A DNA stretch of 32,000 bases from Streptosporangiaceae bacterium (GCA_035308365.1 DATGGU010000012.1:93161-125160); one strand, 5' to 3'; numbered from the stretch's first letter, positions 16,754-21,319 are shown. Notes: generated from the letters alone by a model not told the origin. Numbers and translations are program-made.

Positions 16754-17434
16754 GTGTCCTCGTTCGTCTTCATGAAGCTCCTTGAGACCCGGGCATCCCG
16801 CTACGACCGCGGGATGCGGTTGCTCACCTTCGGCCGGATCGGCGGGCTGTACCGGGCGATCGCCGGGCACATCCCACCGGGCAGCGAGGTCCTGGAGATC
16901 GGCTGCGGCACCGGCGGGCTCACCGCCGAACTGGCCGGCCGAGGCTGCCGGGTGACCGCGGTCGACCGCTCCCCCCAGATGCTCGCGATCGCCGCGCGCA
17001 AGCTGGCAGAGATCGATACGGCCGCGAGCCCGCGGCTGCTGCCCCTGTCGATCACCGGCCTGGACCGGACGTTCGGTGCCGGCGCGTTCGACTACGTCGT
17101 GAGCTGCCTGGTACTCAGCGAGCTGACGGCCACAGAGGAACGCTACGCGCTGGACTGCTCCGTCCGGCTGCTGCGCCCGGGCGGTGGCCTGGTGATCGCC
17201 GACGAGGTGCTGCCAGCGAACCCGGTGCGCCGGGTGATCTATCATGCGACGCGGCTGCCGGTGGCGGCACTGGCCTACCTGCTGACCCAGACGTCGAGCC
17301 ATCATCTCCGCGACATCGACGGCAAGCTGCGCAGCCGGGGGCTGGAGGCGGTCGAGCGGACGACGTTGCAGCACGGCTCGTTCGCCATCGTGGCGGGGAG
17401 GAAGCCGGCATGCCGTCTGCAGCCCCAGAAGTGA
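16754..17434 (+). CDS. Class I SAM-dependent methyltransferase
   Basis: 'GSEVLEIGCGTGGLTAELAGRGCRVTAVDRSPQML' and 'FDYVVSCLVLSEL...RLLRPGGGLVIADE'. Confidence 0.88.
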   Translation: MSSFVFMKLLETRASRYDRGMRLLTFGRIGGLYRAIAGHIPPGSEVLEIGCGTGGLTAELAGRGCRVTAVDRSPQMLAIAARKLAEIDTAASPRLLPLSITGLDRTFGAGAFDYVVSCLVLSELTATEERYALDCSVRLLRPGGGLVIADEVLPANPVRRVIYHATRLPVAALAYLLTQTSSHHLRDIDGKLRSRGLEAVERTTLQHGSFAIVAGRKPACRLQPQK

Positions 17435-18498
17435 CGGCGGCCCGCGCCGCCGCCACGGTGCCACCGCACCGGGCCTGGCTGCGTGAGCTGGTCCAGTTGC
17501 TGTTCCGCTCGTTTCCCTTCCATACCGAGCCGGGACTGCGCGTCTTCGGCACCCCCGGCCGGTCGGCTCCGGTGTTCGTAACCTGCAATTTCGACCATAC
17601 GGTCCGGATGGTCTCCCGGGTGCTCGGCCGTTATGACTGCTATCTGCTGGTCGCCCCGACGGGTGGCATGAACGTGTGGTGCGCGTCGGCCGGGGGTCAT
17701 TTCGGCACCGACGAGGTCGAGGCGGCCATCCGGCTCAGCAACATCGAGGACTTCGTCGACCACCACCGGTTAGTGCTGCCCCGGCTGGCGGCTCCCGGAG
17801 TGGATACAAAGGAGCTGCGCCGCCGGACCGGCTGGCGGGCCGTGTTCGGCCCGATCGAGATCGGCGATCTGCCGGCCTGGCTGGAGGGTGAATTCCCGCA
17901 CCTGGTGCCGGATCAGGTGCGCTTCCCGGCCCGCCGGCGTGCCGCGATGGGCGTCGGTGCCGCGCTGTGGCCAGCCGGCCTGATCGGCTTCCCGGCCGGC
18001 CTCATCGAGGGCTGGCAGACCGGGATGCTGGCCGCCGCGCTCGGCTATCTGCTGTCGGTACTGTTCGCGCTGGCCTACCCGTACCTGCCCGCCGAGCCGG
18101 GGCTGCGGCAGGCGGCTGCGCTGGGCGGGCTGCTTGGCGCCGCCGCGGCGGGCGGAGCCGTGGTCAGCGGCGGTGCGGTAGCGGGCCCGGTGTTCTGGGG
18201 GATCGCCCTGGCCGCACTCGGCCTGCTGATCGGGCTCGACTTCCCGAGCTGGTCGCCGACCGACGTGTGCAAGCAGCAGTTGCTGTGCTTCTTGTACCCG
18301 GCAACGCTGGCGCCCGCCGGGTTCCTGCCCACCGTGGACGAGCCGGCCTGCATCGACGGCTGTGACATCTGCGTGCGGATCTGCCCCAAGGGGGCGCTCA
18401 CCCTGAACGAACGGAGCAAGGCGGAACTCATCGACCCGGCGGACTGCCTGAGCTGTTACGCCTGCGTCCAGCAGTGCCCGGTCGACGCCATCAGCTGA
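17410..18498 (+). CDS. Fused HgcA/HgcB-like protein: CdhD/HgcA-type corrinoid domain, TM region and C-terminal 2x[4Fe-4S] ferredoxin
   Basis: 'PVFVTCNFDHTVRMVSRVLGRYDCYLLVAPTGGMNVWCASAGGHFGTDEV' and 'HRLVLPRLAAPGVDTKELRRRTGWRAVFGPIEIGDLPAWL' follow the HgcA pattern. Next come about 4-5 hydrophobic segments, then 'CIDGCDICVRICPKGAL' and 'CLSCYACVQQCPVDAI'. Confidence 0.82.
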   Translation: MPSAAPEVTAARAAATVPPHRAWLRELVQLLFRSFPFHTEPGLRVFGTPGRSAPVFVTCNFDHTVRMVSRVLGRYDCYLLVAPTGGMNVWCASAGGHFGTDEVEAAIRLSNIEDFVDHHRLVLPRLAAPGVDTKELRRRTGWRAVFGPIEIGDLPAWLEGEFPHLVPDQVRFPARRRAAMGVGAALWPAGLIGFPAGLIEGWQTGMLAAALGYLLSVLFALAYPYLPAEPGLRQAAALGGLLGAAAAGGAVVSGGAVAGPVFWGIALAALGLLIGLDFPSWSPTDVCKQQLLCFLYPATLAPAGFLPTVDEPACIDGCDICVRICPKGALTLNERSKAELIDPADCLSCYACVQQCPVDAIS

Positions 18499-18507
18499 AG
18501 GAAGGAC

Positions 18508-20511: not shown

Positions 20512-20626
20512 CCGCATCGGCGGTCCGTATTCGGCGCACTATTAGAATGATCTTTGCGCATAGCTGCTTGAGCTGCGGTGACGCTGCCGGCTGGAAGGAT
20601 TGGAATAAGGATCTTAGGATCGTGGC

Positions 20627-21319
20627 ATGGAACGCTCCTCGCCAGCCAATTCGCCGGGCCAAACCGGAGATCTCGTCAGGTCGACTCTGCCCAGCCGCCA
20701 GCTGGAGCTTTCGCCGGTCCTGCGCAAGTTCCACCGCGCCATTCTTAACCTTTTTCTCAGCACCGGCCGGCCCCCGGGGCACAATGAACTGCGGGCACCG
20801 GCCGCTGAGCTGGGACTGGACGCCGGCGAGGCGATGCGCGAGCTGGCCCGGGTGGACCTGGTGCACGCCGACGCCGGCGGCCGCATCACTGTGGCCTACC
20901 CCTTCTCGGGCGACGACCGGGGGATCCACGTCCAGCAGGCCGATGGCCCGGGTGTGTGGGCGATGTGCGCCATCGACGCCCTCGGCATCCCGCAGATGTC
21001 CGGCCGCGACGTGGTGATCACCGCCACCGATCCGGCCAGCCACGAACCGGTCACCGTAGAATCGCGCGACGGCCAGCTAACCTGGCAGCCGCGCAGCGCC
21101 GTCGTCCTGGTGGCGAACAACGGCCACAGCGGGACCAGCGCCGAGTGCCTCTGCCCACTGATCACATTCCACACCACCGAGCAGAACGCGCTTGACCACC
21201 TCGCCGCCCAGCCCGGCGTCACCGGCCAGGTCGTGTCCCAGGCAAAGGCATACGAACTCGCCGGAGCCACCTTCGGCTCCCTGCTCACCAGCCAGCCCGA
21301 ACCCGCCCCCGAGCGCTAA
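20627..21319 (+). CDS. MerB-like alkylmercury (organomercurial) lyase family protein
   Basis: 'GRPPGHNELRAPAAELGLDAGEAMRELARVDLVHADAGGRITVAYPFS', 'GVWAMCAIDALGIPQMSGRDVVITA' (Cys and Asp of the WCALDTL-type motif) and 'SAECLCPLITFHTTEQNALDHLAAQPGV'. Confidence 0.77.
   Translation: MERSSPANSPGQTGDLVRSTLPSRQLELSPVLRKFHRAILNLFLSTGRPPGHNELRAPAAELGLDAGEAMRELARVDLVHADAGGRITVAYPFSGDDRGIHVQQADGPGVWAMCAIDALGIPQMSGRDVVITATDPASHEPVTVESRDGQLTWQPRSAVVLVANNGHSGTSAECLCPLITFHTTEQNALDHLAAQPGVTGQVVSQAKAYELAGATFGSLLTSQPEPAPER

Follow-up and report, generated by a model that had tools for sequence, protein, structure and literature searches.

An actinobacterial cassette joining a fused HgcAB-like corrinoid protein, a P1B ATPase and a MerB-like lyase, with possible links to mercury handling

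A 32,000-nucleotide stretch of a Streptosporangiaceae bacterium genome (GCA_035308365.1, DATGGU010000012.1:93161-125160), referred to below as the window, has an actinobacterial composition of about 70% G+C and carries a compact set of same-strand genes for a small membrane protein with a vicinal cysteine pair (the CC protein), a 'corrinoid protein-associated methyltransferase' (CpaM), an HgcAB-like fusion protein, a heavy-metal P1B ATPase and a MerB-like lyase. Comparison with related loci (designated by L numbers) showed this unit to be one form, the 'MerB variant', of a cassette that occurs in Actinobacteria alone, and we propose that it may handle a thiophilic metal. The features concerned, in window coordinates, are as follows.

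16229-16269, + strand: candidate promoter and palindrome (promoter scan, palindrome search)
16308-16748, + strand: gene for the CC protein, a small membrane protein of 146 amino acids (ortholog alignment)
16754-17434, + strand: CpaM methyltransferase gene (NF043040)
17410-18498, + strand: HgcAB-like fusion gene (NF043039)
18508-20511, + strand: P1B ATPase gene (TIGR01525)
20627-21319, + strand: MerB-like lyase gene (PF03243)
24537-24914, + strand: ArsR/SmtB metalloregulator gene (HTH_5, NF033788)

An earlier sequence-only reading of this DNA had described four consecutive same-strand genes, and the open reading frames (ORFs) and their spacing were found as it had claimed: the CpaM and HgcAB-like genes share a 25-bp overlap, the ATPase start lies 9 bp after the HgcAB-like stop, and the MerB-like start follows the ATPase stop after 115 bp. 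All four genes have coding-type G+C contents at third codon positions (0.85-0.91) and plausible ribosome-binding sites. The packing is operon-like, as that reading had held, but it had omitted a fifth gene, that of the CC protein (16308-16748), whose stop codon lies 5 nt 5′ of the CpaM start. The unit is read as a five-gene operon spanning 16308-21319, one gene longer at its 5′ end than first described. No tRNA was detected in the window, nor did any Rfam family, riboswitches among them, match there, even when thresholds were relaxed around the cassette, and the composition of the window gave no sign of a recent insertion.

The four domain identities proposed earlier were all supported by models scoring above their cutoffs (NF043040, NF043039, TIGR01525 and PF03243). 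CpaM, with 256 bits against the NF043040 cutoff of 180, is a class I S-adenosylmethionine (SAM)-dependent methyltransferase that matches Pfam Methyltransf_25/11/12. The fusion protein scored 301.8 bits with NF043039 ('HgcAB-like fusion protein', cutoff 285). Its residues 36-157 form a corrinoid domain of the corrinoid iron-sulfur protein (CFeSP) type (CdhD, PF03599, 54.6 vs. 24.8 bits), which aligns to the CFeSP large subunit 4djd_C and is followed by a hydrophobic membrane segment and a C-terminal 2x[4Fe-4S] ferredoxin domain (Fer4) with two CxxCxxCxxxCP-type cluster motifs. The cap helix reads NVWCASAGG, and its cysteine, which corresponds to Cys93 of HgcA, does not vary among the aligned relatives. 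Only the actinobacterial clade conserves a C-x5-C motif (DVCKQQLLC), placed after the membrane segment and before the ferredoxin domain. An AlphaFold2 model of the protein, computed from a 16-sequence alignment, had a pLDDT (predicted local distance difference test) of 57, too poor to place the C-x5-C motif relative to the corrinoid site, and was not used. Among 72,556 plasmid records no homolog of the fusion protein was found.

True HgcA was considered as an identity for the fusion protein and rejected. The HgcA equivalog model NF040863 failed with 130.8 bits against a cutoff of 275, and the octamer NVWCASAG lies outside the accepted list of HgcA cap helices (NVWCAAGK, NVWCASGK, NVWCAGGK, NIWCAAGK, NIWCAGGK and NVWCSAGK; PMC10087281). 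Further, the HgcB model reached only 38.3 of the required 99 bits, the C-terminus (...CPVDAIS) lacks the Cys-Cys tail of HgcB, and the ferredoxin is not a separate protein. The fusion protein is accordingly assigned, by model score and motif, to the fused HgcAB clade and not to true HgcA. The HgcA-based 'carbon-metal bond-forming machine' of the sequence-only reading was a supposition that neither the HgcA score nor the non-methylating cultures with fused HgcAB bear out.

Relatives of the cassette were obtained as 5 genomes from a genome-collection scan with a single-protein query, with additional loci from 12 encoding-contig look-ups and 80 from an alignment-based metagenome scan, and every locus was scored with hidden Markov models built for the census. 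These gave 78 non-redundant fused loci, 69 with enough upstream sequence, and 15 loci with split hgcA and hgcB genes, 8 of which were evaluable. Twelve loci are actinobacterial: the window, L001-L005, L008, L009, L011, L017, L020 and the partial L022.

CpaM was encoded directly upstream of the fused HgcAB-like gene in 68 of the 69 evaluable loci, and upstream of split hgcA/hgcB in none of the 8. CpaM and the fusion protein are thus the defining pair of the fused clade, in line with their NCBIfam name, and the pair separates that clade from true hgcAB. The ATPase, recognised by the motif TPC in its transport helix, came after the pair in all 11 actinobacterial loci long enough to show it, and in none of the 28 non-actinobacterial fused loci with at least 3 kb of flank. 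Clustering of neighbouring ORFs, noisy with shadow ORFs, revealed no recurrent third gene in the non-actinobacterial fused loci, and a MerA-like gene was near 1 of the 28. The CC protein was present in all 12 actinobacterial loci and in no other fused locus. The 25-bp overlap of the CpaM and HgcAB-like genes was identical in the six actinobacterial loci with usable gene coordinates (the window and five others), and the percent identities of CpaM, HgcAB-like protein and ATPase co-varied across 10 loci (Spearman 0.79-0.88). The identical overlap, the position of CpaM and the ATPase that follows in the actinobacterial loci indicated that the arrangement of the cassette genes is far beyond chance. 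Conservation of the gene set had been named beforehand as a point on which the sequence-only reading could be refuted, and the genes for the CC protein, CpaM, the HgcAB-like protein and the ATPase were colinear in every actinobacterial relative found.

The actinobacterial loci occur in two types of context. Type A (L001-L005, L008, L009 and L011) comes from Actinocrispum, Rhizocola, Actinophytocola, Streptomyces sp. CNQ-509, Lentzea and metagenome-assembled genomes. All eight type-A loci have a divergent GntR-type regulator gene and seven have a DUF169 gene directly after the pump; within 10 kb, six carry a close MerA homolog together with an ArsR-type regulator and five a MerB-family gene, so the link to organomercury biology that had been suggested from the window stands. 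The MerA equivalog TIGR02053 was passed in both loci scanned (L008, 581.5 bits; L009, 562.9 bits; cutoff 454.45), and L008 also carries a canonical MerB. Three type-A loci are flanked by mobile-element genes: L009 by conjugation genes, L011 by such genes together with transposases and a reverse-transcriptase gene, and L008 by genes of transposase families. Type B (the window, L020 and L017) has no GntR, DUF169 or merA gene; its MerB-like gene directly follows the pump, and genes of the same 'biosynthetic' families surround the cassette. L020 is a sister of the window, with 81-90% identity and full synteny from a pyridoxal phosphate (PLP) decarboxylase gene to a TetR gene, selD being syntenic as well, and L017 is a distinct lineage (77% identity for the HgcAB-like and 52% for the MerB-like protein). 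The cassettes that lie in mer islands have 65-72% identity and are without the biosynthetic neighbours of the window.

DUF169 genes were also met in actinobacterial metal-resistance islands independently of the cassette, in a recurrent module with an ArsR gene, a gene for a 60-71-amino-acid peptide and a Peptidase_C39 ATP-binding cassette (ABC) exporter gene (L009, 132-3895; L102, 7001-10849); in L102 the module stands beside MerB, MerR, CadD and arsenate reductase genes. Residues C44, H62, C65, C164 and C182 are invariant in the island DUF169 proteins (for example L008, 13191-13898). An AlphaFold model of DUF169 was confident (pLDDT 92) and resembled no solved structure significantly (Foldseek, best E 0.047, template modelling (TM) score 0.22); DUF169 may thus have a novel fold in which Cys and His residues form a metal or cluster site.

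The ATPase scored 504 bits with the heavy-metal P1B model TIGR01525 (cutoff 346) and has all core motifs (TGE at residue 201, DKTGT at 340, HP at 378 and GDGINDA at 539). It has no heavy-metal-associated (HMA) domain, its Pfam matches being E1-E2_ATPase and Hydrolase only; its N-terminus bears GLFGEADLSQERL, invariant among orthologs, and 'CM' lies in its first helix. The transport helix reads ITPCAF, that is, TPC then Ala, where CopA has CPC; it is invariant in 9 orthologs and fits none of the defined P1B subgroup signatures (CPC, CPH, SPC and PCP; PMC4932525). Compared with 1.84 billion cluster representatives, the ATPase found one 50%-identity cluster, with a relative at 65% identity and 853 bits; the next-best match had 39% identity and 378 bits, and the nearest outsiders have CPC or APC. 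This drop in score and the motifs of the outsiders place the ATPase in a private, isolated pump clade, which, as far as the sequences compared here extend, occurs only with the cassette. In the last transmembrane helix (20389-20403, residues 627-631) the window and L020 have FHCGSF, and all other orthologs FHAASF (or FQAASF). The extra cysteine, in the predicted ion path of the pump, is lineage-specific and coincides with the MerB variant without merA. TPC is also a motif of 'IB-5' ATPases, and HEGST is the motif of P1B-4.

The MerB-like protein exceeded the PF03243 cutoff (92.7 vs. 27 bits) and fell below those of the MerB equivalogs (NF009710, 56.4 vs. 193; NF033555, 50.1 vs. 200). A profile of its 26-sequence family matched the MerB structures 3f2g and 1s6l with E values of about 1e-30, and a single-sequence search of the PDB returned spurious cyanovirin matches only, the protein being too distant from plasmid MerB to be matched in this way. 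C114, D117 and C176 are invariant in the 26 sequences and align with the catalytic C96, D99 and C159 of MerB (3f2g; segments ...AWCALDTL... and ...FCsHVHFF...). By profile and alignment the protein is a divergent actinobacterial MerB paralog with a predicted Cys-Asp-Cys catalytic triad intact; a protein annotated in a Streptosporangiaceae metagenome-assembled genome is 100% identical to it. In the Lentzea locus, merA and the gene for a MerB-like paralog of this type overlap by 4 bp at the merA stop codon, as in translational coupling, indicating that this paralog family works inside true mer operons. The MerB-like gene is in the same position, after the pump, in the window, L020 and L017 and also in L018/L019, and DUF169 occupies this fourth-gene position elsewhere. 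The pairing of HgcA-like and MerB-like proteins in one unit, which had been singled out as unusual, is therefore genuine and seen repeatedly, yet the MerB-like gene is an exchangeable fourth gene and no constant part of the cassette.

Other neighbours of MerB-like genes were recorded as well. An AMP-dependent ligase gene (21536-23521, - strand) converges on the MerB-like gene of the window; its product has an extra C-terminal region of about 150 amino acids, proline-rich and then helix-turn-helix-like, that gave no domain match, and homologs of the ligase adjoin MerB-like genes in L020 and L021. In the unrelated loci L017 (13133-15327) and L103 (1-1173), a B12-binding-type radical SAM enzyme, 47% identical between the two, abuts the MerB-like gene, and in L103, from Nonomuraea typhae, the radical SAM/MerB-like pair heads an operon with genes for an ATP-grasp enzyme, an ornithine/diaminopimelate decarboxylase, an aminotransferase, two methyltransferases and DUF169. 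The radical SAM/MerB-like pairs suggest that the chemistry of MerB-like and DUF169 proteins may extend to biosynthesis.

An N-terminal vicinal cysteine pair is invariant in the CC protein (alignment of 10 orthologs), which also has a G-x-RR motif and, by hydropathy profile, 2-3 hydrophobic helices; it matched no Pfam or NCBIfam family. Its gene has the ribosome-binding site gaaggagg. Upstream, a promoter scan found the promoter-like sequence CTGACA-18 nt-TATCAT at 16229-16258 (10 of 12 matches), overlapped by the perfect palindrome ATCATGgcggCATGAT at 16254-16269, the sole exact copy in the window. Together they are a candidate operon start and candidate operator (16229-16269); in the sister locus L020 the promoter is retained and the palindrome is degenerate. 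A search for an operator shared by the cassette promoter, the gap upstream of the MerB-like gene and the ArsR region yielded only this single palindrome. In all seven type-A loci examined (L001-L004, L008, L009 and L011), the highly conserved motif CCATTGACATAGGACAAG, which contains the -35-like hexamer TTGACA, lies about 60-100 bp 5′ of the CC-protein gene; the window, L020 and L017 do not have it. CCATTGACATAGGACAAG is a likely operator for the GntR/YmtS_Ross regulator.

The setting of the cassette in the window is formed by selenium, small-molecule and regulatory genes. The selenoneine biosynthesis genes for SenA (4957-6234, + strand; NF041186, 480.9 bits vs. 420) and SenB (TIGR04348, 359.8 vs. 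300) lie within 4957-7254 (+ strand), and the selenophosphate synthetase gene selD at 26345-27283 (+ strand; TIGR00476, 335 bits). The distance from senAB to selD is about 19 kb; they are not contiguous, and the metal cassette lies between them. None of senA, senB and selD occurs within 10 kb in 8 other actinobacterial loci. Six neighbours, for a PhnD-like binding protein, an AurF-like/TusA-like protein of 406 amino acids, an ArsR-rhodanese protein, a cytochrome P450, a PLP decarboxylase and an MFS_3 protein, are kept in L017 at 66-82% identity in rearranged order:

window 123-1890 and 8525-13447; L017 697-3495 and 15385-21075: six-gene set

By this conservation, the set looks like a small-molecule pathway accompanying the cassette in its MerB variant. 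The metal-cassette reading given earlier was sound in domains and packing, but it overlooked this selenoneine/secondary-metabolite setting and the mer-island context of the relatives.

The ArsR gene of the window (24537-24914), 3 kb 3′ of the cassette, encodes a protein 62-76% identical to the merA-linked ArsR-type regulators in L001-L009, and regulation of the cassette by it is possible on this similarity. Directly 5′ of it, 23933-24478 (+ strand) encodes a membrane protein of 181 amino acids with a C-x4-C motif (CGYDGC) and a sub-threshold DUF6410 match; the protein is conserved in L020 and is possibly a metal-transport partner of ArsR.

From the predicted activities and the mer linkage of relatives we propose, with a probability of about 0.4, that the five-gene operon handles a thiophilic metal, most likely mercury or organomercury, by SAM-fed corrinoid methyl transfer combined with efflux and a carbon-metal lyase. 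A more modest statement, under which the cassette acts on a soft metal and has a functional connection to mercury-resistance islands, is somewhat more probable than its opposite. In the proposed working, CpaM would transfer a methyl group from SAM to the reduced cobalt of the membrane-anchored HgcAB-like protein, as suggested by the near-obligate pairing of the two proteins and by the published methylation of HgcAB cobalamin, in which SAM methylates the cobalamin of true HgcAB via Cys-ligated methyl-Co(III) (PMC11588087). The fused 2x[4Fe-4S] domain, judging by domain content, would supply the electrons that bring cobalt back to Co(I). A metal ion could be held by the Cys-Cys of the CC protein and the C-x5-C of the fusion protein, in place of the HgcB Cys-Cys tail, and the Cys-capped methyl-corrinoid would give its methyl group to this Cys-bound metal. 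The TPC-type ATPase would then expel the resulting or unreacted metal species, its presumed substrate, from the cytoplasm. In type B, the MerB-like protein may cleave the carbon-metal bonds of cytosolic or re-entering organometal and leave the ion to the pump; together the two would give a MerA-independent clean-up that replaces MerA-dependent volatilisation.

Several observations weigh against this proposal. Cultures of Pyrococcus furiosus and M. methylutens, which have fused HgcAB, formed no methylmercury (PMC4646819, PMC10087281). Hg(II) becomes more toxic on methylation, which makes a gain in resistance less than obvious, and methylation paired with a lyase looks futile unless the steps are compartmentalised. 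The cassettes of the window and L017 sit among secondary-metabolite and selenium genes and not among mer genes, and no merA, merT or merP was found in the 32-kb window. The ATPase lacks a metal-binding N-terminal domain, and its motif is outside CPC, CPH, SPC and PCP. Outside Actinobacteria the fused pair comes without the pump, a recurrent third gene or, the one MerA-like neighbour apart, mer genes, so that a toxic metal need not have figured in its original function.

Two unrelated functions could instead lie side by side, the MerB-like protein and the P1B ATPase forming a MerA-less organomercurial or soft-metal resistance and the CpaM/HgcAB-like pair performing other corrinoid chemistry, such as halomethane dehalogenation or methyl/electron transfer, with co-regulation as the only tie. 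This is rather unlikely, since the pump clade is found with the cassette only and co-varies with CpaM and the HgcAB-like protein, and the 9-bp gap and conserved gene order in the actinobacterial loci argue for one machine, even though the pair does without pump or recurrent third gene in the 28 non-actinobacterial loci. MerB-like paralogs also pair with other (ABC) exporters and ArsR regulators in loci without the cassette (L021, L102), which fits separate functions; against this, the cysteine pairs of the CC and fusion proteins occur only in the pump-bearing clade. The failure of the tested fused-HgcAB organisms to methylate Hg also fits separate functions. Dehalogenation gains from a report that true HgcAB dechlorinates CCl4 (bioRxiv 10.64898/2026.04.26.720869), but a dehalogenase would not obviously need a SAM methyltransferase.

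The flanking senA, senB and selD genes raise another explanation, in which the cassette serves the surrounding pathway for tailoring or self-resistance (selenoneine, or PLP decarboxylase/P450/glycosyltransferase): the corrinoid system would methylate a Se-, S- or C-centred metabolite or make an organometal(loid) product, the MerB-like protein would act on that molecule, and the pump would confer immunity. L020 is fully syntenic, selD included, L017 keeps the six neighbour orthologs despite rearrangement, and MerB-like genes abut the B12-type radical SAM gene in L017 and in the biosynthetic-looking Nonomuraea operon (L103). We consider this explanation unlikely, as cassettes at 65-72% identity stand in mer islands free of these neighbours, senA, senB and selD are missing within 10 kb in the other 8 actinobacterial loci, and the P1B pump and the paired cysteines speak for a metal ion and against an organic substrate. 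Least probable, and very much so, is cobalt or corrinoid housekeeping, with the pump exporting excess Co(II) like P1B-4 and the other genes loading, repairing or protecting a corrinoid protein. The corrinoid protein is indeed the centrepiece of the cassette, the P1B-4 structure 7qbz was among the best structural-database sequence matches of the ATPase, and the ATPase shares with P1B-4 the lack of an N-terminal metal-binding domain; but where P1B-4 has SPC and HEGST the cassette pumps have TPC and HAAS/HCGS, no cobalamin riboswitch was found in the window, and the mer linkage, MerB and the vicinal-cysteine protein would be left unexplained.

Within the proposal of thiophilic-metal handling, a bolder version would make the cassette a second, oxygen-tolerant route to carbon-mercury or other carbon-soft-metal bonds, running from SAM through CpaM and the HgcAB-like corrinoid to a Cys-bound metal, with the pump expelling the methylated cation and the MerB-like or DUF169 protein as a cytosolic safety valve. 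It is improbable on present evidence. If true, fused HgcAB-like genes, including the abundant Nitrospina-type genes of the oxic ocean, would be genuine metal methylases once their partners are present, and the product in the window might interact with the neighbouring selenoneine pathway.

The cassette shares parts with several known systems. With HgcA/HgcB (Parks et al. 2013; Zheng et al. 2024, PMC11588087) the fusion protein has in common the corrinoid domain, the cap-helix cysteine (NVWCA), the membrane segment and the 2x[4Fe-4S] module, and SAM is a plausible methyl source in both. The window protein is, however, one fused polypeptide and not two, and the fused clade almost always has a separate SAM methyltransferase (68/69), whereas true hgcAB loci are without one (0/8). 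The cassette hosts appear to be ordinary soil actinomycetes, which we take to be aerobes. Fused HgcAB has been known since 2015 (PMC4646819), and the CpaM/HgcAB-like pair is already catalogued by NCBI. The window passes both cutoffs of that fused pair (NF043039/NF043040; Podar et al. 2015, PMC4646819) with the same adjacency, to which the actinobacterial clade adds the CC protein, the C-x5-C motif, the TPC P1B ATPase, DUF169 or MerB-like protein, the GntR-type regulator and the mer linkage. For Nitrospina of the oxic ocean, a preprint figure legend gives MerR, DUF169 and a methyltransferase of the UbiE type as neighbours of the HgcA-like gene (Villar et al., 10.1101/648329); these loci share the module logic of the actinobacterial cassette, and the legend mentions no P1B pump, CC protein or MerB.

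The broad-spectrum mer operon (MerR/ArsR-type regulator, MerA and MerB) shares with the cassette a MerB-family lyase with the Cys-Asp-Cys triad; the window also encodes an ortholog of the mer-linked ArsR-type regulators, and cassette relatives lie within merA/merB islands. In contrast to that operon, the window has neither MerA nor recognised MerT/MerP, its lyase is divergent, and metal removal would be by ATP-driven efflux and not by reduction to Hg(0). In an ars locus, methylation by ArsM, carbon-arsenic bond cleavage by ArsI and efflux of methylated species by ArsP can be combined in one resistance locus, and ArsM methylates directly with SAM, without a corrinoid. The ars genes are thus a precedent for bond-making, bond-breaking and efflux together, from families unrelated to those of the cassette. 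With P1B-4 (SPC) and P1B-5 (PCP) ATPases the window pump shares the core motifs and a proline-cysteine dyad in the transport helix, and like P1B-4 it lacks HMA; unlike both, it has TPC then Ala, its own N-terminal GLFGEADLSQERL, and an isolated sequence cluster.

The actinobacterial CC protein, the C-x5-C motif, the TPC pump, the alternation of DUF169 and MerB-like genes, the GntR control and the mer linkage found no description in the full-text literature covered, which includes few subscription journals and is indicative only. Fused HgcAB-like genes are routinely met in surveys of mercury-methylation genes and then set aside, and the Nitrospina-type genes are central to the question of where the methylmercury of oxygenated sea water originates. 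The mer-linked relatives give a first usable clue to the function of this enigmatic family, as the cassette supplies a consistent partner set (a SAM methyltransferase, a vicinal-cysteine membrane protein, a private pump and a lyase or DUF169) together with recurrent merA/merB/regulator linkage. Sequenced hosts include Streptomyces sp. CNQ-509, Lentzea flaviverrucosa, Actinocrispum wychmicini DSM 45934 and Rhizocola hellebori NBRC 109834, at least two of them in public collections, and knock-outs and metal-speciation assays should be feasible in these hosts. Even if mercury gave a negative result, the cassette would still define a new system of metal handling, including a P1B ATPase of a new subtype.

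Interspersed among the selenoneine genes of the window are terpenoid-type genes (1951-4800, - strand; 7304-8332, - strand; 9348-10526, + strand) for a squalene-hopene-cyclase-like protein, a UbiA prenyltransferase, a polyprenyl synthetase and a P450. Of the minus-strand ORF at 3679-6834, only the UbiA part (about 3682-4800) is real.

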